Assembly: GCA_045600105.1 (NCBI GenBank)
Contig: JAZRXG010000005.1
Coordinates: 25,939 to 89,938, forward strand
DNA length: 64,000 nucleotides
Origin: Eubacteriales bacterium
Lineage (GTDB): Bacteria; Bacillota; Clostridia; Oscillospirales; CAG-382
Direction of reading: 5' to 3'
The notes below the pieces were generated by a model. That model worked only from the letters and a program-made list of their open reading frames with translations. It was not told the DNA's origin and did no database searches. A program made the position numbers and the translations under genes. Shown in pieces: positions 2,483 to 61,290 of the stretch (position 1 is the first letter of the stretch; each line of letters starts with the position of its first letter).

Positions 2483-4022
2483 ATTTCAAAAAGACGAGGC
2501 ACAGCAGCGTATACGGCACGAGCAGCGTCACGGCGCAAGCCGCAAGCTCCGGCACTTTCCCCATCTCCGGCAGAAGCGAAGATACCTTTGACGCAAGAAA
2601 GCCCGAAATAAGCGCGAAAAGCGCGGAAAAAGCGAAATGCCCGACGAATCCGTGACGGATCGACGCCTTTTTTACCGTTCTGATATAGCACATGAAGAAC
2701 GAGAACGTGTTCGACACCACGAGCAGCCACAGATACCCGTTAGCCCCCGTGCGGGGAATGAGAAGAAGAATGATGATCATTCTCGTAACGCAGTTGTAAA
2801 CGGTCACCCGCATGGTGTACGCCTGCTCCCCGATGCCCTTGAGCATGCCGTCGCAGATCGTTTCGACGTACATGAACGGAGTGACGAGGGAAAGTATGCG
2901 TATCCCCGACGCCGCGTCGGTATTTCCGTAAAAGCACAGGCTGATCTTTTCGGGGAAAAAGTAAAACAGGCTTCCGGCGGCGACGCTGAACAGTATCGTC
3001 GTTTCAAGCGTTTTGCCTACCCTTGCGTCGCGTTCACGCTTGTCGGAAGACGCGTTCAGCCTCGACACCGTCGGGACGAGCACGCTGAGGGTCGCCGAAA
3101 GAAAGGCGAACGGGAAAAACAGCACGGGGATGACCATGCCGCGTATGAGCCCGAAATCCGAAAGCGACTTTCCGTATTCACCGCCGTAAAGCGTGAAGCA
3201 GTACGGGATAAGCACGTTTTCGACGGCGTGGAGGGCGCTGTTGAGCCAGCCGCCCGCCGCAACGGGGATAGCCACGCGTGCGACCCTGCCGATGCCGTAA
3301 TCGCGCTTTTCGCCTTTTTTGAAACGGTATCTTTTTGAAAACGCGAAGAAAAGAGCGACGTAGCAGCACGAGAATATCTCGCCCGCGGCAAGTCCCGCCG
3401 TGAGTCCGGCGCAGAGCCTTCCCGTGTCGGTCGTGCCGCCGAGGAACAGAGTGAACACGCCGACCGTGAGCCCTATTTTGCACAGGTCCTCAAAAAGCTG
3501 CGCAGACGACGGTATGACGTAACGTCCCTTTGCCATAAAATAGCCCTTGAAGCAGGACGAAAGCGCCATGAACGGCATTGAGAGCGAAAGGAGCCGCAGC
3601 GGCAGCAGCGTTCTGGCGTCGCCGAGGATAAGGCGAGAGAGAGGCGACGACAGAAAAAGCAGCATGGCGAGCGACGACGTGCCCATGAAAAGCGCGAGCC
3701 TGAACGACGAAGAAAGCGCCGAAAGCGCCGTTTTTCCGTCGTCGTTCTTTTCAAATTCCTCCGCGAGGACGCGTGACACGCTGAGCGTGAGCCCCGAATT
3801 TGCGAAAGAAGCAAAAAGCGAATAGACCGAGAGCACGAGCTGATACAGCCCCATTCCCTCGCTGCCCATGCGCGAAACGAGATAAAGGCGGAAAAGCATC
3901 CCGCTTCCCCGGCAAAGAAAAGAGAAAAGGCATATCACCGCGGACGACACAAGTATCTTTTTCCCGAAGTTCAATACGCCGCCTCCCGTTTTTTGCTGCT
4001 GCCTTACATTTTTATGTGCCAA
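2460..4022 (-). CDS. MOP-superfamily flippase (SpoVB/MurJ/polysaccharide biosynthesis protein family)
   Basis: 520-aa polytopic membrane protein with many TM segments and the general SpoVB/MurJ-like layout. Its 3' end overlaps the spoIIIAA start by 23 nt. Confidence 0.7.
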   Translation of the reverse strand: MAHKNVRQQQKTGGGVLNFGKKILVSSAVICLFSFLCRGSGMLFRLYLVSRMGSEGMGLYQLVLSVYSLFASFANSGLTLSVSRVLAEEFEKNDDGKTALSALSSSFRLALFMGTSSLAMLLFLSSPLSRLILGDARTLLPLRLLSLSMPFMALSSCFKGYFMAKGRYVIPSSAQLFEDLCKIGLTVGVFTLFLGGTTDTGRLCAGLTAGLAAGEIFSCCYVALFFAFSKRYRFKKGEKRDYGIGRVARVAIPVAAGGWLNSALHAVENVLIPYCFTLYGGEYGKSLSDFGLIRGMVIPVLFFPFAFLSATLSVLVPTVSRLNASSDKRERDARVGKTLETTILFSVAAGSLFYFFPEKISLCFYGNTDAASGIRILSLVTPFMYVETICDGMLKGIGEQAYTMRVTVYNCVTRMIIILLLIPRTGANGYLWLLVVSNTFSFFMCYIRTVKKASIRHGFVGHFAFSALFALISGFLASKVSSLLPEMGKVPELAACAVTLLVPYTLLCLVFLKYENRKTV

Positions 4023-4554: not shown

Positions 4555-5247
4555 ATGATAATACTCGGTATCGACACCACCGCCGTCACGGCGACGGCTG
4601 CAGTCTGCGAAGCCGAAGACGGCGTCATCACGAACCATTCGCTGTCTCTGCTCAAAAACGGACTCACACACTCCGAAAATCTGCTCCCCATAATAGATTC
4701 CGCGCTGAAGTCGATGGGCAAGACCCCCGACGACATTGACCTCGTGTCCGTCTCGGTCGGTCCCGGCTCGTTCACCGGCGTCAGGATAGGCGTCGCCACG
4801 GCAAAAGGCATCGCGTTTGCCGGAAACAAAAAGGTCTGCGGCGTTTCGACGCTCGAAGCCCTTGCCGAAAACTGCGCTTCCTTCGGCGGCATCGTCTGCC
4901 CCGTCATGGACGCGAGACGCCATCAGTTCTACAACGCGCTTTTCGAGAACGGAAAAAGACTCTGCGAGGACAGATGCGTTTCGTTTGAGGAGATATACGC
5001 CGACGCGATGAGTTACGGCAAGCCCGTGATGCTCTGCGGCGACGGCGCGAGACTCTTTTATTCGCTTTGCGAAAACAAGGAAGGTATCGTGATGCCTCCG
5101 CTCTGCGCCGAAGACCAGAACGGTCTTTCGGTCTGCGTGACCGCATACAAAAAATACCTTGCCGGAGAATACACGACACACGCCGAGCTGCGTCCGGTAT
5201 ATCTGAGACCGTCTCAGGCTGAAAGAGAAAGGAATGCAAAATCATGA
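4555..5247 (+). CDS. tsaB: tRNA t6A37 biosynthesis protein TsaB (YeaZ family)
   Basis: 230 aa, N-terminal MIILGIDTT motif of the ASKHA-fold YeaZ/TsaB family, adjacent to tsaE. Confidence 0.8.
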   Translation: MIILGIDTTAVTATAAVCEAEDGVITNHSLSLLKNGLTHSENLLPIIDSALKSMGKTPDDIDLVSVSVGPGSFTGVRIGVATAKGIAFAGNKKVCGVSTLEALAENCASFGGIVCPVMDARRHQFYNALFENGKRLCEDRCVSFEEIYADAMSYGKPVMLCGDGARLFYSLCENKEGIVMPPLCAEDQNGLSVCVTAYKKYLAGEYTTHAELRPVYLRPSQAERERNAKS

Positions 5248-5672
5248 AAATTTCAATTGGCTGCGATCACGGCGGGCTTGAACTCAAAAACGCCATTGCC
5301 GAACACCTCAGAAGCGAAGGTCACGAGGTGACCGATAACGGCACCTATACCAAGGACAGCTGTGACTACCCCGTTTTTGCCAAAAAGACCGCAAAAGCGG
5401 TTTCTTCCGGCGACGCCGACTTCGGCGTGCTCGTCTGCACCACCGGCATCGGTATGTCGATATGCGCCAACAAGGTGCGCGGCGCGCGTGCCGCCCTCAT
5501 CCACGAGACGAGAGGCGCCGAAATGTGCAGACGCCACAACAACGCCAACGTAATATGCTTCGGACAAGCCGTCACCGACGTTGACACCGCCTGCAAATGC
5601 GTTGATATATTCCTTTCCACCCCTTTCGAAGGCGGCAGACACGAACGCCGCGTTTCAATGTTCGAGGACTGA
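5244..5672 (+). CDS. rpiB: Ribose-5-phosphate isomerase B
   Basis: 142 aa, MKISIGCDHGGLELKN... and CTTGIGMSICANK motifs typical of RpiB/LacAB. Confidence 0.85.
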   Translation: MKISIGCDHGGLELKNAIAEHLRSEGHEVTDNGTYTKDSCDYPVFAKKTAKAVSSGDADFGVLVCTTGIGMSICANKVRGARAALIHETRGAEMCRRHNNANVICFGQAVTDVDTACKCVDIFLSTPFEGGRHERRVSMFED

Positions 5673-7156: not shown

Positions 7157-9076
7157 ATGAAAAAGATCGTTGTACTCTTCCTCATCGTATGTCTGTGCAT
7201 ACCCGTTTTCGCGGGCTGCACCACGCTTCAGGGCGATGACGACAAGGGCGCGAACATTCAGATGTTCATCACCTCGTTCCCGCAGTCTCTCGACCCGGCA
7301 ACCCTTCAGCTTGACGCGACCACGTCGCTGATCCTCAGCCTCATCTATCAGCCTCTCACCGCCATCAACGAAGACGGCGAGGTCGTCGGAGCGCTTGCGA
7401 ACAAATGGTACTCCGAATATGATGACTGCGATGAGCTGTATAAAATGTATTTTGAACTGAACGAAACGTATTGGAGCGACAAGATCCTCGTTCAGGCTCA
7501 GCACGTTGCCGACGCCTGGACCCGTATCCTTTCTCCGGATTTCGAGTCTCCCTACGCTTCCATCCTCTTCCCGATCAGAAACGCCAAGGATTACAAAGCC
7601 GGCATCAAGACCGCGTCCGACCTCGGCGTATACGCCATGAGCGAAGACCTCCTCTGCGTTGAATTCGAATGCGAATACGACGCCGACCTCTTTGCCGAAG
7701 CAGTCTCCTGCATAGCGCTTGCCCCCGTTCGTTCCGACATCATCGACAAAGCGATGAAGGATAACCCCGTAGGCAGCAAGAACTACGACAGACTTCAGGA
7801 CTGGGACAAGAACGCCGCCATCATGGTCTGCAACGGTCCGTACAGAGTTCAGGGCTATGAAGAAGGAACCAAGCTCGTTCTCGAAAGAAACGCTTATTAC
7901 TACCGTGACGAAGAAGACGATTACCTTGACGAAAGCGTAATTCCCTACCGTCTCACCTGCATCTATCAGGAAACCACCATCCACAGCGATGAAAACGGCG
8001 ACGGCATCGACAACTACGAATTCGAATACAGAAAATGGAGGAACGACTGGTCTTCTTCCGAAGCCGCGAAAGGCGTCAACTACTTCCTCGGTGCTTTCTC
8101 CGCCGATACCTACGCAAAGGTCAAAGCCGACGGCACCAAGATGAACACCGCAGACCTTCTTTCCACCTATACTTATTTCTTCAACACCAAATCCGAAATA
8201 ACCGCCGACGCCAAAGTCAGAAACGCTCTTTCCGCCGCTCTTGACAGAAACCGCATCGTTGAGATAATGGGCACCGGCATGAAAGCCTCCGCCGGCTTCG
8301 TTCCCGAAGGCGTGTTCGGCAAAAAGGCAGGCTCGAGCTTCAGATCCGAAGGAACCGACATTTACAGCGCTTCCGGCAGCATCGACAGCGCGAAGCAGCT
8401 TCTGAAGGAAGCAGGCGTCACCTCCGGCACCATCAGACTTACTTACCTCATTCCCTGGTCCAAGCAGCTTTATTCTTCCGAGACCCTGCACAACACCAAG
8501 GCGAAAAAGGTAGTCACCTATAACCCCTACGAAGCGATAGCCAACTACGCAAAAGAAACGTGGGAATCCCTCGGATTCACCGTTGAGCTCACCGGCGTCA
8601 CCGCCGACGCTTTCCCCGCAGCGGTCTCCGCGGGCGAATGGGACGTCATCGGTCTCGACTACGCCATGAACTCTGTCGACGCTTTCGCGTTCCTCGCTCC
8701 TTTCGCTACCTGGTACAGCGGAAACATCGTATCCACCGAAGTTGACGCCGCCACCTTCACTCCGCACTACACCGGACTTGAAAGTGCCGAATACGACGCC
8801 CTCATCGATGAGATCGTGTACGACTCCAACAGAGCCACCAGATCCGCCAACCTCCACAAAGCAGAAGAGCTCTTCGCTTCCCTCTGCCCCGCGACCGCTC
8901 TCTTCCAGTACACCAGAAGCTACGTTGCTTCCGGCAAGCTTGACGGGATCAAGAACGAAAGCTGGTACGGCTACTACAACTTCAACGAACTTGAGCTTGA
9001 CGATTACATCAAGGTCAACGCCAAGGAAGGCGAAGAAAGCTTCGCAAGAACCGAAGATACCAACAACGCGAAGTAA
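7157..9076 (+). CDS. ABC transporter substrate-binding lipoprotein, family 5 (peptide/oligosaccharide type)
   Basis: Track ORF 7043..9076 trimmed to ATG 7157, which gives MKKIVVLFLIVCLCIPVFAGC (signal peptide plus lipobox FAGC). Overall SBP_bac_5-like sequence. No permease or ATPase genes are adjacent. Confidence 0.75.
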   Translation: MKKIVVLFLIVCLCIPVFAGCTTLQGDDDKGANIQMFITSFPQSLDPATLQLDATTSLILSLIYQPLTAINEDGEVVGALANKWYSEYDDCDELYKMYFELNETYWSDKILVQAQHVADAWTRILSPDFESPYASILFPIRNAKDYKAGIKTASDLGVYAMSEDLLCVEFECEYDADLFAEAVSCIALAPVRSDIIDKAMKDNPVGSKNYDRLQDWDKNAAIMVCNGPYRVQGYEEGTKLVLERNAYYYRDEEDDYLDESVIPYRLTCIYQETTIHSDENGDGIDNYEFEYRKWRNDWSSSEAAKGVNYFLGAFSADTYAKVKADGTKMNTADLLSTYTYFFNTKSEITADAKVRNALSAALDRNRIVEIMGTGMKASAGFVPEGVFGKKAGSSFRSEGTDIYSASGSIDSAKQLLKEAGVTSGTIRLTYLIPWSKQLYSSETLHNTKAKKVVTYNPYEAIANYAKETWESLGFTVELTGVTADAFPAAVSAGEWDVIGLDYAMNSVDAFAFLAPFATWYSGNIVSTEVDAATFTPHYTGLESAEYDALIDEIVYDSNRATRSANLHKAEELFASLCPATALFQYTRSYVASGKLDGIKNESWYGYYNFNELELDDYIKVNAKEGEESFARTEDTNNAK

Positions 9077-53304: not shown

Positions 53305-53333
53305 CTCTTCACTATTACTTTTTCACTGTTTCT

Positions 53334-53402
53334 CGGGACGTCGAGGACGCCGTCCACTGCAAAGCAAAAAAGGATTTCCGCATTTTTTCGCGGAAATCCT
53401 TT
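53334..53402. repeat. Mosaic intergenic repeat, copy 3 (modules A+B), left flank of the AT-rich cassette
   Basis: CGGGACGTCGAGGACGCCGTCCACTGCAAA (53334-53363) plus hairpin AAAGGATTTCCGC/GCGGAAATCCTTT (53369-53402). Same orientation as copy 4. Confidence 0.8.
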
Positions 53403-55059: not shown

Positions 55060-55110
55060 CATTTGACACTAAACGATATTCTTAAAAAATCAATCACTCC
55101 TGACTGAAAT

Positions 55111-55200
55111 CGGGACGTCGAGGACGCCGTCCCCTACAAAGTCAAAAAGGATTTCCGTATCCGCGGAAATCCTTTCTTATTCGCTTAAGGCTTTTATGCT
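55111..55200. repeat. Mosaic intergenic repeat, copy 4 (modules A+B+C), right flank of the AT-rich cassette
   Basis: CGGGACGTCGAGGACGCCGTCCCCTACAAA (55111-55140), hairpin AAAGGATTTCCG/CGGAAATCCTTT (55146-55175), then CTTATTCGCTTAAGGCTTTTATGCT abutting the stop at 55202. Confidence 0.8.
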
Positions 55201-56932: not shown

Positions 56933-57862
56933 TCAATGACGGATAGTAAGATCTATCTCAGGTATGAAGGACGCGGGTTTGTCAAGATCCTCGGGATGCT
57001 CGAAGAAATAACGGAGCACCTTGAGACTGCGCGCGAAATAAACGCCGTCGGCGATACGTTCGTCGATGGTGAGCCCGAGCTCGAGCGAGTCGCGCATTTC
57101 GTAAGTGCCGTCGTCGTTATAGAACGGGCGTAACTTTTTGGTGTTGATGACGGCAAAGAACGAATTGGTTCCCCAGTTGCCCAGATGATGGTAGTCGGCG
57201 TGCATATTTATCGAGCCGAGGTTGGTAACGAAAGCGGTGGTGTAATAAGGATCGGCGTCGCAGGCGGACTTGGGCATCTTGCCGTGACGGTCGAGCCAGT
57301 GCATGACCTTGGCGACTATCTTGAGGATGGGGCCTGGTATCTTGGCAAGCGTACCGATCTTATCCATGGCGTCGGAGCCCGAATCTTCTGTGGCTCTTGC
57401 CTTGGTGGCGACCTGCTTCACCTTGGCGTTCAACTGATCGACCGGCGACACGTCGCTTTCGGTATCGTACGTCATCCTCACGAGGACTTCCTTGGAAGCA
57501 TCCACGAACTTCTTCTTGAGAGTAAAGGATAACGTGATGTCGTATCTTTCATAAAGCTTGTAGTTCGCGTAAAAACGGTTGAGCCACGGACGCATCTGGA
57601 TGGTCTTTGCGATAGCGGCACAGGTGAAATGGAAAAGAGTATATTTGAACTCGGGGTTGCCCTCGTTCTTTTTTGCAAGGAATTCGTCAACTTTGGTTAT
57701 GTCGAGGATCTCGTTGAGGACCGCTTCGTTATCGGCGCGGTTAACGATCATATACGACATGAATACGTGCATGGGGTCTGCGTCACGGACAAGAAAAGCG
57801 TCTTTTCTGTCGCCGAAGCGGCGTTTGCGTTTGGGTTTTTCGGAAGACATAGTACCACACAT
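56933..57862 (-). CDS. 2-oxoacid dehydrogenase acyltransferase catalytic-domain-like (CAT-fold) protein
   Basis: 309 aa with a C-terminal LTIDERIADG motif aligned to the DHRxxDG signature of the E2/CAT fold (His replaced by Glu). Upstream partner of the AMP-ligase gene. ATG 57850 is an alternative start. Confidence 0.55.
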   Translation of the reverse strand: MCGTMSSEKPKRKRRFGDRKDAFLVRDADPMHVFMSYMIVNRADNEAVLNEILDITKVDEFLAKKNEGNPEFKYTLFHFTCAAIAKTIQMRPWLNRFYANYKLYERYDITLSFTLKKKFVDASKEVLVRMTYDTESDVSPVDQLNAKVKQVATKARATEDSGSDAMDKIGTLAKIPGPILKIVAKVMHWLDRHGKMPKSACDADPYYTTAFVTNLGSINMHADYHHLGNWGTNSFFAVINTKKLRPFYNDDGTYEMRDSLELGLTIDERIADGVYFARSLKVLRYFFEHPEDLDKPASFIPEIDLTIRH

Positions 57863-57966
57863 CCAATTCTTAAGAAATTCTTAACACCATTGAATGATAC
57901 CATAATACGACTGAAATGTCAACCTTTTTTTCGCTTTTTCCGTTTTTTCAACACCCGTTAACAAAA

Positions 57967-58018
57967 CTCAGGCGTTCTTGTCGCGGCTCTTGAAAACAAG
58001 AGAAAACATCACGGCGAA
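57967..58018. repeat. 52-bp direct repeat, copy A (duplicate of the spoVAE 3' end)
   Basis: CTCAGGCGTTCTTGTCGCGGCTCTTGAAAACAAGAGAAAACATCACGGCGAA matches 59497-59548 at 50 of 52 positions. Confidence 0.9.
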
Positions 58019-58171
58019 AACATTCGGATTCTTTGCAGCGTCACAAACGAAAGCCCATACCGCTTTAATGACATATATGCGTCGAAAAAGCCGTATAGAC
58101 TTTGCGTTTTTATTGTATGACTCTACTGGACAATTTTTCTTATTTCAAAATATTGTCCAATAGACAAGTGA

Positions 58172-59353
58172 TTACAAAGATTCCATTTTCAAAAAATCGC
58201 ATAGCTTTATATGTTGGACTGTGCTGGTGGAATAATCAAGTTCATCATTGCTGATGAGTATTTTTCGGCAGGAATTATCCATATTATTCAGTGCTTTGAA
58301 TTCACGGTTATACGCCTTTTCCTCCGCAACGGACAAAGCCACCTGTATATAATACTGTTTATTTTCTTTTATGGCAACGAAGTCGATTTCTTCTTTTCCG
58401 TTGAAATAAACCTGTAAGGAATACCCCATATATACAAGCTCATTATAGACTATATTTTCAAGATTATGAGAAAGGTCAAACCTGCCGTTCGTGCAGCGTA
58501 TTGAATTCAGGCAAACGTCTTCGTCGTACGTCTTCTGATAATAGTTCAATTCACGCTTTGCTTTGCCGGAATAAAGCCGTACCGTTTCAATCGCAAACGC
58601 CTCTTCCAAATAGCCGAGATACTTTGTGACAGTCGTTACAGAGCAAGGAAATCCATTTGATTTCAGGTAATCGTTGATAGATCTTGCGGAAAATACTCTT
58701 GCGTTGGAAATGAGAACATAATTTGCGATTTTACGGAACGTATCCGTTTTTCGGATGCCATATCGATTGATGATATCATTGATGATAATCGTTTCGTTCA
58801 AATCGTTCAAATATATTTTTTGTGCTTCCGTACCGTCAAATTCAAGTCGTTTCGGAAATCCGCCCCAAACGAGATAATCGGTAACCGACACATATTTGCC
58901 GAGTTCTTCGGCGTATTCACAAAGCTCTTTATACACAAAAGGACGAACGCGAAAAGCAACATATCTTCCCGAAAGTTCTTTTGTGAATTCCTTTGATAAA
59001 AGTTTTGAATTAGAACCGCTGATAAAAACAGAGCAGTCATGAAGTCGTATGGTACGGCAGGCAACCGCCCAATCTTTAACACGTTGAACTTCATCGAGGA
59101 ACACATAACATTTCCCGCTTTTTCTGTGCTCATCGACATAATTTATCAGTGAAACCGCGTCAGGCAGCGTCATCAAAACGGAAGCGTCTTCAAAATCAAG
59201 ATCAATAATGTTATTCGTTTTCGCTTTTATCTCAGACAAAATTTCGTCAAGAATCACTGATTTTCCGCAGCGTCGTATTCCCGTAATAATTTTGATCAAA
59301 TCGCTATCGTAAAAATCACGAACAGGGGCAATATAATGCTCTCTGTAAATCAT
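58172..59353 (-). CDS. AAA-family ATPase with DUF4143-type C-terminal domain (COG1373-like)
   Basis: 393 aa, Walker A GIRRCGKS, Walker B VFLDEVQ, C-terminal nuclease-fold-like region typical of AAA_14/DUF4143 proteins. Confidence 0.75.
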   Translation of the reverse strand: MIYREHYIAPVRDFYDSDLIKIITGIRRCGKSVILDEILSEIKAKTNNIIDLDFEDASVLMTLPDAVSLINYVDEHRKSGKCYVFLDEVQRVKDWAVACRTIRLHDCSVFISGSNSKLLSKEFTKELSGRYVAFRVRPFVYKELCEYAEELGKYVSVTDYLVWGGFPKRLEFDGTEAQKIYLNDLNETIIINDIINRYGIRKTDTFRKIANYVLISNARVFSARSINDYLKSNGFPCSVTTVTKYLGYLEEAFAIETVRLYSGKAKRELNYYQKTYDEDVCLNSIRCTNGRFDLSHNLENIVYNELVYMGYSLQVYFNGKEEIDFVAIKENKQYYIQVALSVAEEKAYNREFKALNNMDNSCRKILISNDELDYSTSTVQHIKLCDFLKMESL

Positions 59354-59375
59354 AAAAGTATTTCACCTCGAAAGC

Positions 59376-59404
59376 AGTATATCACAAGCAAAGCAAAAAG
59401 TCAA
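59376..59404 (-). promoter_or_regulatory. Putative sigma-A promoter of the ATPase gene
   Basis: Minus strand: TTGACT (59404-59399), 17-nt spacer, TGATATACT (TATACT 59381-59376), then RBS GAGGTG. Confidence 0.5.
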
Positions 59405-59496
59405 CAAAATCATTCATTACTAATGGACAATATTGCAAATATTAAAAAATCGTCCAATATGCAATATGCTTTTCTGCGGCAGAAAAATGACTGATG

Positions 59497-59548
59497 CTCA
59501 AGCGTTCTTGTCGCGGCTCTTGAAAACAAGAGAAAATATCACGGCGAA
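59497..59548. repeat. 52-bp direct repeat, copy B (authentic 3' end of spoVAE)
   Basis: Covers the stop codon (59498-59500) and the last 16 codons of spoVAE. Confidence 0.9.
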
Positions 59549-59857
59549 CGAGACCGCCGCCGTTATCCCCGCGGAAGTTGCCGAAAGCCCTCCGGTGAGT
59601 ACGCCGAAAAGTCCGTTTTCGTCAACGGCGTCCTTCACCCCGTTCGCGAGCAGATAGCCGAATCCGGTGAGCGGCACCGTCGCGCCCGAAGACGCGAAAG
59701 AGACGAGTTTTCCGTAAACGCCGACTCCCGTCAGAACGACTCCGGCGCAGACGTAGGCAACAAGTATCCTTGCCGGCGTGAGTTTGGTCTTGTCGACGAG
59801 GATCTGGGCTGCGACGCAGAAAGCGCCGCCGACGAGAAAAGCACGCAGATATTCCAT
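59498..59857 (-). CDS. spoVAE: Stage V sporulation protein AE
   Basis: 119 aa from ATG 59857 (GGAG RBS; overlaps the spoVAD stop as TAATG). MEYLRAFLVGGAFCVAAQILVD...GATVPLTGFG is typical of SpoVAE/SpoVAC-fold membrane proteins. Confidence 0.85.
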   Translation of the reverse strand: MEYLRAFLVGGAFCVAAQILVDKTKLTPARILVAYVCAGVVLTGVGVYGKLVSFASSGATVPLTGFGYLLANGVKDAVDENGLFGVLTGGLSATSAGITAAVSFAVIFSLVFKSRDKNA

Positions 59858-60279: not shown

Positions 60280-60399
60280 AAATTGTTAAAATTCCTTTAT
60301 TTATGCGGGTTTCCGGACTTTTTATATGGGTGCCGCTATGGGTGGGTTACTGTTAAGTTTAAACCATAAGACGAAAATCGGGGCATTTTTGCTTCCAAA

Positions 60400-60436
60400 A
60401 GCAAAAAATCGGAGGCATCACACCTCTGATTTTTTG
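60400..60436 (-). terminator. Bidirectional Rho-independent terminator after the kinase gene
   Basis: ATCGGAGG-7 nt-CCTCTGAT (60408-60430) is flanked by A-run/T-run on both sides. An additional hairpin TTTTTGCTT/AAGCAAAAA lies at 60386-60407. Confidence 0.6.
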
Positions 60437-60465
60437 TATTTCCGCAGTATTTTACCCGTCGGAAA

Positions 60466-61290
60466 TCACAACGAAAACAATTTTTGCCTTTCCAAAATGC
60501 ACTCTTCTACCCGATCAAGTATCAAATCTCTGTCCCTTTTGGGGTAATAATCGAGAAGCGGTTTCACTCTGTCCGCGATTTCCACCCGGTCATATTTCCT
60601 GATTTTCAGTATCGGGCCTGTCAATCCTCTCGCCGTATTCATCTGTCTTGTAAAAGACGTTCCCATCGGTCTTGCGATCGATTTTTTTATGAGCGCCTTC
60701 GGCGCTATGTCAAAGGGCAAAAAGCTCACACCCGAAAGAAGTCCCGCTCCGTTGTCGAAAATGGGGCAATAGGAATATCCACCGTCTTTTTCTATAACGG
60801 CTATGTTGTTCAGGTGTCTGTCGTCATTCAAAAAAAGCGAGTCCACTTCAAAAATCAAGGTGAGATACTTCGGAAAATCCGTAAGTCCCGTGATTTCCGC
60901 CGTAGTGTTTGCCAAATACTCAACTCTTTTTTTGTCGCTTGTAAATTTCATCAGTTTTTCTTTCAAAGGACAGCCCAGATAAAGAGTCAGCAATCTGTTG
61001 AGCGTAACGATGGATTCTCCGTCTTTCAGAAAATTTCCGCTGACGCAGCCCGTTCTGTCTCTGCCGTGAACACGAAAACGCGTCATGCCGTACCGAACAA
61101 ACGTGAACGGCGTATCCGTTTCGATATTGCTGTCTTCCAAAAATTCGGAAATGACCGTTTCGGCAAGGCTTTCGTAACCGAATTGATCGAGCTTGTACCA
61201 GCAGTCGGTTTCTTTGTCGTACCATTTTTCCTGATTTCCTTTTGACGAGGTTTCGGCTATTTTTTCATCGGAAACAAGTTTTATCTCCAT
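60466..61290 (-). CDS. HipA-family Ser/Thr kinase-like protein, core domain only
   Basis: 274 aa from ATG 61290 (GGGAGG RBS; TGATG overlap with the upstream gene). Motifs are KGNQEKW (ATP loop-like), NDDRHLNNIAV (catalytic loop-like) and IFDNGAG (Mg-binding-like). Confidence 0.7.
   Translation of the reverse strand: MEIKLVSDEKIAETSSKGNQEKWYDKETDCWYKLDQFGYESLAETVISEFLEDSNIETDTPFTFVRYGMTRFRVHGRDRTGCVSGNFLKDGESIVTLNRLLTLYLGCPLKEKLMKFTSDKKRVEYLANTTAEITGLTDFPKYLTLIFEVDSLFLNDDRHLNNIAVIEKDGGYSYCPIFDNGAGLLSGVSFLPFDIAPKALIKKSIARPMGTSFTRQMNTARGLTGPILKIRKYDRVEIADRVKPLLDYYPKRDRDLILDRVEECILERQKLFSL

Follow-up and report, generated by a model that had tools for sequence, protein, structure and literature searches.

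The window analysed here is a stretch of 64,000 nucleotides from contig JAZRXG010000005.1 (positions 25,939 to 89,938 of the forward strand, assembly GCA_045600105.1) of a Eubacteriales bacterium of the CAG-382 lineage. Between spoVAE and an acyltransferase-like gene, it contains a 1478-bp insertion that carries a single ATPase gene and is bracketed by two copies of the last 52 bp of the spoVAE locus. On the other side of spoVAE lies a 3' fragment of spoVAD, which adjoins the end of a resident element of the large serine recombinase (LSR) type. The features of the locus were as follows (window coordinates):

56933–57922, minus strand: acyltransferase-like gene, downstream of the insertion and untouched by it, with its own promoter (TTGACA-17-TATCAT, 57922–57894)
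57967–58018, minus strand: direct repeat copy A, which duplicates the end of spoVAE as an orphan and adjoins the native spoVAE–acyltransferase intergenic region
58019–59496, minus strand: inserted fragment, exactly 1478 bp, low GC
58019–58122, minus strand: 3' spacer b, 104 bp with a long hairpin, homologous to the sequence following the unit inside LSR elements that target spoVAD
58123–59461, minus strand: conserved discrete unit of 1339 bp, comprising palindrome P1, promoter, ATPase gene and palindrome P'
58124–58163, minus strand: palindrome P', just past the ATPase stop codon and similar to P1
58172–59353, minus strand: ATPase gene, 393 aa, with AAA+ (AAA_14), winged-helix and restriction endonuclease (REase)-like (DUF4143) parts; PADLOC PDC-S01
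59376–59404, minus strand: ATPase promoter TTGACT-17-TATACT, TG-extended
59420–59459, minus strand: palindrome P1, operator-like, TTGGACGAT..ATTGTCCA, upstream of the −35 hexamer
59462–59496, minus strand: 5' spacer a, 35 bp, separating the unit from the duplication and foreign to the target site
59497–59548, minus strand: direct repeat copy B, the functional spoVAE 3' end (16 codons, TGA and 1 nt), contiguous with the SpoVAE open reading frame (ORF)
59498–59857, minus strand: spoVAE, the target gene, intact; true start ATG at 59857, 119 aa
59857–60279, minus strand: spoVAD 3' fragment; the end of the resident LSR element, without the ATPase unit, begins at 60280

A strain-variable insertion with a 52-bp target duplication

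Within 55–64 kb of the window, a repeat search returned the pair 57967–58018 and 59497–59548 as the single outstanding direct repeat. The two 52-nt copies were identical at 50 of 52 positions (96%) and offset by 1530 bp. Copy B closes the SpoVAE ORF, the product of which matched PF03862 in a profile search (E 3.4e-34). Copy A departs from it by an ATA to ATG change (Ile to Met) and by one synonymous difference. The insert had a GC content of 0.36–0.41, compared with 0.55–0.62 in the flanks on both sides, and 58172–59353 was its sole credible ORF. The initial annotation had described the repeats with copy B as the spoVAE end and copy A as an orphan, the 1478 bp of lower GC, and a lone 393-aa ATPase gene behind a TTGACT-17-TATACT promoter; all of this was borne out by the repeat, ORF, Pfam and promoter analyses.

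Four contigs from other samples (L113–L116), with 94.4–95.6% nucleotide identity to the window and an identical 119-aa SpoVAE, lacked the 1478 bp. In 4/4, spoVAE was followed by 118 bp and then by the acyltransferase-like gene, with one copy of the 52-mer. This single copy aligned with both window repeats, its flanks were 94–96% identical to those in the window, and the sequence beyond it was the sequence found beyond copy A. The junction order is exact: GGTCTCG/52-mer/TTTTGTTAAC in the native arrangement and GGTCTCG/copy B/insert/copy A/TTTTGTTAAC in the filled one. Additionally, spoVAE and the acyltransferase gene were adjacent in five congeneric species, which also lacked the cassette. Since the four contigs have a single copy without the insert, the 1478-bp segment is a genuine insertion that varies between strains. 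The one-gene insertion at the spoVAE 3' end proposed by the initial annotation, which had suggested a search for such empty sites, was thereby confirmed, and a universally conserved arrangement is ruled out by the same sites. No second filled allele, with the cassette at the spoVAE end, was present in the collections searched.

An assembly artefact could also be ruled out. As the copies differ at two sites, collapse or looping of a repeat in the assembly is not the explanation; the contig is a long one, and the 52-mer occurs at this locus alone. A search for further copies of the cassette or the 52-bp core, likewise suggested by the initial annotation, was run on the organism's own genome and returned none elsewhere, so the cassette is single-copy.

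At positions 21 and 30 of the 52-mer, both window copies read T and G, as against C and A in the four empty alleles. Between the two window copies, positions 12 and 48 are the only differences; at position 12, the gene copy and the empty alleles read ATA and the orphan reads ATG. As the lineage's own synonymous alleles occur in both copies, the resident target was duplicated and the gene end was not imported. In comparison with genus outgroups, the sites that differ between the repeats are synonymous and polymorphic, so their polarisation is only partly informative. The 52-mer contains a perfect 6-bp palindrome in both window copies (CTCTTG-TTTT-CAAGAG, 59513–59528 and 57983–57998). The empty-site alleles read CTCTCG-TTTT-CAAAAG, and the two alleles that distinguish the window complete the palindrome.

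No mobility gene was found inside the 1478-bp insert by ORF and Pfam searches, and the insert protein matched no transposase family in Pfam. A sub-threshold TniB-like match was confined to a paralogue of the ATPase in another genome. Neither the cassette nor the sequence next to it contained an integrase gene; all four tyrosine recombinase genes of the genome were located on other contigs. The insert region had no match in Rfam.

The ATPase and its discrete unit

Residues 19–145 of the 393-aa protein matched AAA_14 (E 1.4e-27; 96.7 bits against a gathering cut-off of 27), and residues 193–338 matched DUF4143 (E 8.3e-10; 39.1 bits against a gathering cut-off of 28.1). DUF4143 is listed as a PD-(D/E)XK family (PMC3424549). 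Residues 1–390 aligned to profile positions 10–408 of 412 in the PADLOC model for PDC-S01 (PDLC04787, E 2.6e-112), and by this full-length profile match the protein is a member of PDC-S01. In a 27-sequence alignment including the window's protein, the Walker A motif (G25-x-R-R-x-G-K31-S, with G25, R27, R28, G30, K31 and S32), the Walker B pair D87-E88 and the C-terminal residues E299, E322, D324, Q337 and K364 were invariant. The best fold matches of an AlphaFold model (predicted local distance difference test, pLDDT, 77) were archaeal AAA+/winged helix-turn-helix (wHTH) ATPases (2fna, 2qen), DNA-bound Orc1/Cdc6 and STAND NTPases, with FokI among the weaker ones. Among the candidate defence systems of prokaryotes, PDC-S01, described as a fusion of an ATPase with a PD-(D/E)XK domain, is reported to rank fourth in frequency (PMC12988326). 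These features suggest a candidate nucleic-acid-targeting accessory or defence ATPase. The stand-alone accessory or defence-type cargo of the initial annotation is upheld at this candidate level, through the PDC-S01 profile match. No identical copy of the ATPase was found elsewhere on record, the best match being 92% identical, and a pattern scan of IMG/VR returned no relative.

The borders of the unit were determined by comparison of 80 related loci and further contigs. Close relatives occurred in four independent contexts: the window, the ends of LSR elements, and loci L124 and L035. In pairwise comparisons among the four, homology ended at approximately −107 before the ATG (range −104 to −109). 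Downstream, it ended at +51/+52 past the last codon in three of the four contexts (the window, the LSR-element group and L124); the limit was less sharp in L035, near the stop codon or at +62. These limits are the outer edges of P1 and P', corresponding to 58123–59461 in the window. The units of two further loci, L058 and L066, were 99.4% identical over 1317 bp (−125 to +12) and had unrelated flanks. Many ATPase homologues were located on contigs of 1.26–2 kb.

P1 is followed by a degenerate half-site, AATGAATGATTTT, which abuts the −35 hexamer. P' folds as a hairpin with a 13-bp stem (−18.3 kcal/mol, z −4.6), and the window copy has no T-run. In the wider clade, one palindrome is followed by a second one, the arms of which lie over the −35 and −10 hexamers (ACTGAAAGATTTTGTTGACA...AAAATCTTTCAGTATAAT). 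This paired-palindrome architecture was found across approximately 65 family loci. The half-site varied by subgroup, with GGACAAT in the window's and GAAAGAT or GAAAACT in most others. Paired palindromes over a promoter correspond to the layout of an autorepressor and its operator, which suggests that the winged-helix part binds them; the ATPase would then recognise its own palindromes and repress its own promoter.

Further occurrences of the P1 region were noted. The L124 unit is located between rpmH and lspA, and its gene is enclosed by perfect 57-bp direct repeats of P1 plus the half-site (approximately 3894–3950 and 5189–5245), which end just before the −35 hexamer. A sequence look-up for an empty site of the L124 context gave the same contig only. 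In the closest relative genome (G011, contig C30, 3517–3578), P1, the half-site and the start of the −35 hexamer were present without the ATPase gene, with a GDSL lipase gene on one side and an unannotated 274-aa ORF on the other. The neighbour of this solo remnant had no similarity to Hip.

Source of the fragment and duplications at related loci

The initial annotation had proposed that the genomic contexts of ATPase homologues be surveyed. In this survey, the closest relatives were the last cargo gene of LSR elements that split spoVAD: the relatives with 91–92% identity (L033, L034, L117–L119, L123 and L125) directly preceded the spoVAD 3' fragment, at the same split point as in the window. 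The element of L117 resembled the window's resident element, with 78% identity in the Hip pair and 84% in the element end and spoVAD. In L117 the unit lies between the Hip pair and the element end, a position occupied in the window by 130 unrelated bases (60349–60478).

Spacer b contains a hairpin at 58035–58120 (−33.7 kcal/mol, z −4.8). The spacer aligned with a hairpin and the bases following it downstream of the unit in L123, L125 and L033, at a similar offset; the local score against L123 and L125 was 30, compared with a shuffle maximum of 24–26. As the nearest unit relatives sit at the ends of such elements and a homologous element without the unit lies 0.8 kb away, the fragment most probably stems from the terminal cargo of an LSR element that targets spoVAD, judging from these sequence comparisons. 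The donor may have been the neighbouring element or that of another strain. The hairpins of L033, L123 and L125 were bracketed by a short direct repeat, TTCTCTGTT, and L117 and L034 had no such hairpin; the hairpin in the former three looks like a small insertion resembling a miniature inverted-repeat transposable element.

The cassette and the neighbouring element were not inherited together. L113 and L114 had an intact 338-aa spoVAD, no recombinase element and no cassette, and L115 had a split spoVAD with the recombinase-element end, again without the cassette. The two insertions thus segregate independently. The independence of the neighbouring insertion claimed by the initial annotation therefore holds for presence and absence, but not fully for origin, given that the unit's relatives are terminal cargo of homologous elements and that the 3' spacer matches their sequence.

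Relatives of the ATPase gene were also found as one-gene inserts of 1.31–1.50 kb, flanked by duplications of unrelated targets:

L079: 18-bp perfect duplication, 3797–3814 and 5231–5248, at the 3' end of tRNA-Leu(taa), with the tRNA end regenerated
L096: 80-bp duplication
L035: 178-bp duplication, at a gene 3' end
L075: 306-bp duplication, covering a gene 5' end and promoter

Same-locus flanking repeats of at least 40 bits occurred at 7/64 loci, compared with 5/4032 cross-locus controls. Four of the seven were target duplications, and the remaining three were palindromes of the element itself. In the 306-bp repeat of L075, synonymous and non-synonymous changes stood at 4 to 4. The recombinase gene nearest to the L079 insert was a 292-aa Xer-like gene 1 kb away, with no other nearby.

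A second islet with a comparable footprint lies 4 kb away in the window. Its repeats (53333–53383 and 55110–55160) align over 51 nt and enclose approximately 1.7 kb of AT-rich DNA with four unrelated small genes and no such ATPase gene. At this site, L113 had a single copy (8160–8225), which consists of terminator-like hairpins.

Mode of insertion and comparison with known systems

We favour, with a probability of roughly two thirds (0.68), the following explanation: a one-gene module, carried on a fragment from the end of an LSR element, was inserted with a long target duplication by a joining process not dedicated to it, and the insertion varies between strains. The fragment, consisting of the 1339-bp module with 35 bp and 104 bp carried along from its earlier context, would have been cut or copied from the element end. 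It entered 1 nt past the spoVAE stop codon, doubling 52 bp of the resident target. Joining could have been a break-and-repair or a replication-type illegitimate event, either of which would leave a long duplication of variable length. In one candidate route, nicks in opposite strands 52 nt apart would be followed by joining of the fragment and filling-in of the gaps; in another, two template switches would give the same product. Later, RecA-type recombination between the 52-bp repeats would allow the insert to be lost and regained within the species. Neither a dedicated integrase nor a transposase working from fixed ends is favoured, because the duplications differ in length and lie at unrelated targets, the ends of the fragment are not the ends of the unit, and a second example carries other cargo.

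Several results weigh against this explanation. Spacer a had no significant match in other contexts, as judged by shuffle controls, and no donor of it was found. The similarity of spacer b to the element ends is modest. The resident LSR element has no footprint of a lost unit, its bases at 60349–60478 being simply non-homologous to those of L117, which suggests that the source may have been an element of another strain. Target-type repeats occurred at only about 8% of the family loci, and the 18-bp duplication of L079 at a tRNA 3' end is a classic integrase signature. The REase motif has no canonical ExK lysine: the third motif reads Q337-x-A339, and the invariant K364 sits elsewhere. The anti-phage activity of PDC-S01 has been reported as experimentally unvalidated (PMC12988326).

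The best placed of the alternatives, though itself unlikely, is an autonomous one-gene selfish element, in which the AAA+/wHTH/REase protein would bind the palindromes at its own ends, make nicks in the target staggered by tens to hundreds of bases and drive its own insertion. In its favour, the palindromes at the borders of the discrete unit differ from one protein subgroup to another, units of nearly the same sequence were found in unrelated surroundings, and flanking repeats were approximately 90-fold enriched over the controls. The insertion lies 0.8 kb from the usual position of the unit's relatives, resembling local hopping. The 57-bp repeats of P1 and half-site in L124 and the solo remnant in the closest relative genome would also suit a self-mobilising unit, as would the analogy with restriction–modification (RM) genes, for which DNA breakage made by the cargo has been proposed to underlie the mode of insertion (PMC2853133). 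However, the duplicated target in the window abuts spacers a and b and not the palindromic unit ends, and the unrelated four-gene islet has the same footprint without such a gene. Moreover, flanking target repeats are lacking at most loci of the family, the protein has no catalytic ExK lysine, and the unit is single-copy in its genome. If self-mobilisation were true, it would explain the abundance of PDC-S01 among prokaryotic accessory genes and solve a 25-year-old puzzle that was first raised for RM genes.

Next in rank, and improbable, is a decayed or cis-mobilisable integrative element, with the 52-bp repeats as attL and attR, a recombinase encoded elsewhere or lost, and one edge cargo gene left. 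This resembles the att-like integrative or recombinase-in-trans cassette of the initial annotation. A direct repeat containing a gene 3' end is the classic layout of such elements, the relative at the tRNA-Leu 3' end has an 18-bp repeat, the unit, as edge cargo, is typical of integrative LSR elements, and the genome has four tyrosine recombinase genes. Yet the cassette has no recombinase in or beside it, both repeat copies bear the lineage's own alleles, and the second islet, with unrelated cargo, has the same footprint. A fixed att core shared by related elements is ruled out by duplications of 18, 52, 80, 178 and 306 bp at unrelated sequences, one of which spans a gene 5' end with its promoter. 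Five independent events, each with one gene and an insert of 1.31–1.50 kb, would not be predicted by random decay. In the relatives examined, no integrase gene followed the spoVAE end. The initial annotation had also pointed to integrative elements that regenerate the gene end; as the left junction lies 1 nt past the spoVAE stop codon, no gene end needed regenerating.

The neighbouring LSR can be dismissed as the maker of the duplication. Large serine recombinases act through a 2-bp crossover and leave no long duplication, and L115 has the element without the cassette. The locus is related to the att-proximal cargo of LSR intervening elements (Tn4451/skin-type), in which the nearest relatives of the unit occupy the final position ahead of the spoVAD 3' fragment (L117, L123, L125, L033 and L034). 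Unlike these, the window unit lies outside the element, past the spoVAD 3' fragment and spoVAE, with a duplication that serine recombination does not make.

An insertion sequence (IS) or other DNA transposon was rejected as well, given palindrome arms 35 and 104 bp inside the insert, a duplication of 52 bp and the absence of a transposase. IS1630 is similar in its variable, unusually long target duplications and in its hairpin-containing targets, of which the palindrome in the 52-mer and the terminator of the second islet are reminiscent. In contrast to the cassette, IS1630 encodes a transposase, and terminal inverted repeats form its very ends.

Very improbable is Campbell-type spread, that is, a single homologous crossover with a circle from another strain that carried the insert and one 52-bp copy, so that the duplication was inherited: two differences in 52 bp (3.8%) also fit the arrival of one copy from a very close strain, being near the 4.4–5.6% between strains, repeats diverged by 2–7% in other cases, and repeats of 52–306 bp are long enough for RecA, but this accounts for spread and not for the first duplication, at two polymorphic sites the alleles of the window lineage are found in both copies, and no further filled allele was present in the collections.

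The closest parallel to the favoured explanation, insertion of a fragment by non-dedicated joining, comes from RM genes. Insertion of RM genes with long target duplication is described by Furuta, Abe and Kobayashi 2010 (PMC2853133), where Nobusato et al. 2000 is cited for it. The duplications are approximately 46–420 bp, mobility genes are absent, GC is low, and the insertions often lie over gene 3' ends (PMC2853133). The mechanism is unknown; the authors suggest that the cargo breaks DNA and that the repeats then serve for amplification and release (PMC2853133). Their definition comprises an empty site in a closely related genome that can be aligned to either repeat copy, a duplication of >30 bp, an insert of <20 kb without a mobility gene, and restriction and modification genes in the cargo. 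The locus has an empty site, a 52-bp duplication and a 1478-bp insert without a mobility gene; its cargo is not an RM system. Shared traits are the small low-GC insert, the variable long repeat, the single copy at the conspecific empty site, and a repeat that lies over a gene 3' end in nearly identical copies (44/46 in H. influenzae). Differences are the cargo, here a single AAA+/wHTH/REase ATPase (PDC-S01) with its own operator-like palindromes, the host, a spore-forming gut member of the Clostridia (Acutalibacteraceae-like), and a fragment that appears traceable to the cargo end of an integrative element.

With PADLOC PDC-S01 (AAA_14 and DUF4143; COG1373), the ATPase shares the domain pair and a full-length hidden Markov model match. 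The PDC-S01 literature that we found is silent on discrete unit ends, operator palindromes and flanking target duplications. The cassette also resembles cis-mobilisable elements (CIMEs) and other recombinase-less attL/attR islets, in which direct repeats including a gene 3' end surround recombinase-free cargo. Unlike in these, the repeat length is inconstant across the family, the site lacks a cognate integrase or parental element, the duplicated sequence belongs to the resident lineage itself, and the junction follows the stop codon.

The locus is an instance of insertion with long target duplication that carries a new class of cargo, the PDC-S01 module. It links the RM-type long target duplication, known since 2000 and lacking a mechanism, with PDC-S01, the mode of action and spread of which are unexplained. 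It is a well-defined case, with filled and empty alleles near the species level, an exact 52-bp duplication, a discrete 1339-bp module with operator-like palindromes and a probable donor context 0.8 kb away. A further question is whether part of what is counted as the PDC-S01 'defence system' is a selfish cassette.

Other members of the family were encountered near the same genes. The element end of L125 (1751–5182) carries a 399-aa PDC-S01 paralogue, a nucleotidyltransferase/HEPN pair and the 393-aa unit, followed by the spoVAD 3' fragment. In G011 (contig C75, 1845–3767), the closest relative species, the sequence after the spoVAE 3' end carries a RelB-like antitoxin gene and another PDC-S01 ATPase, of 484 aa, in the opposite orientation; no duplication of the spoVAE end was detected there. 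The spoVAE 3' end seems to be a recurrent landing place for the PDC-S01 family.

Distant homologues with approximately 30% identity were present on 173 Acinetobacter and 9 Moraxella plasmids in a plasmid collection. A Xer/pdif-type module was considered and rejected, as the pdif-like XerD arm was absent in the one plasmid region inspected (pE47_002); the palindromes of the unit, with arms of approximately 14 bp and spacers of approximately 11–17 bp, are also unlike dif. On pE47_002, the homologue was located between a HigBA pair and IS elements. In the window's own genome (contig C43, 1495–1550), 46 bp before a GNAT acetyltransferase-like gene were 83% identical to the promoter and ribosome-binding region of the ATPase, a likeness that may be due to chance or to a shared promoter module.

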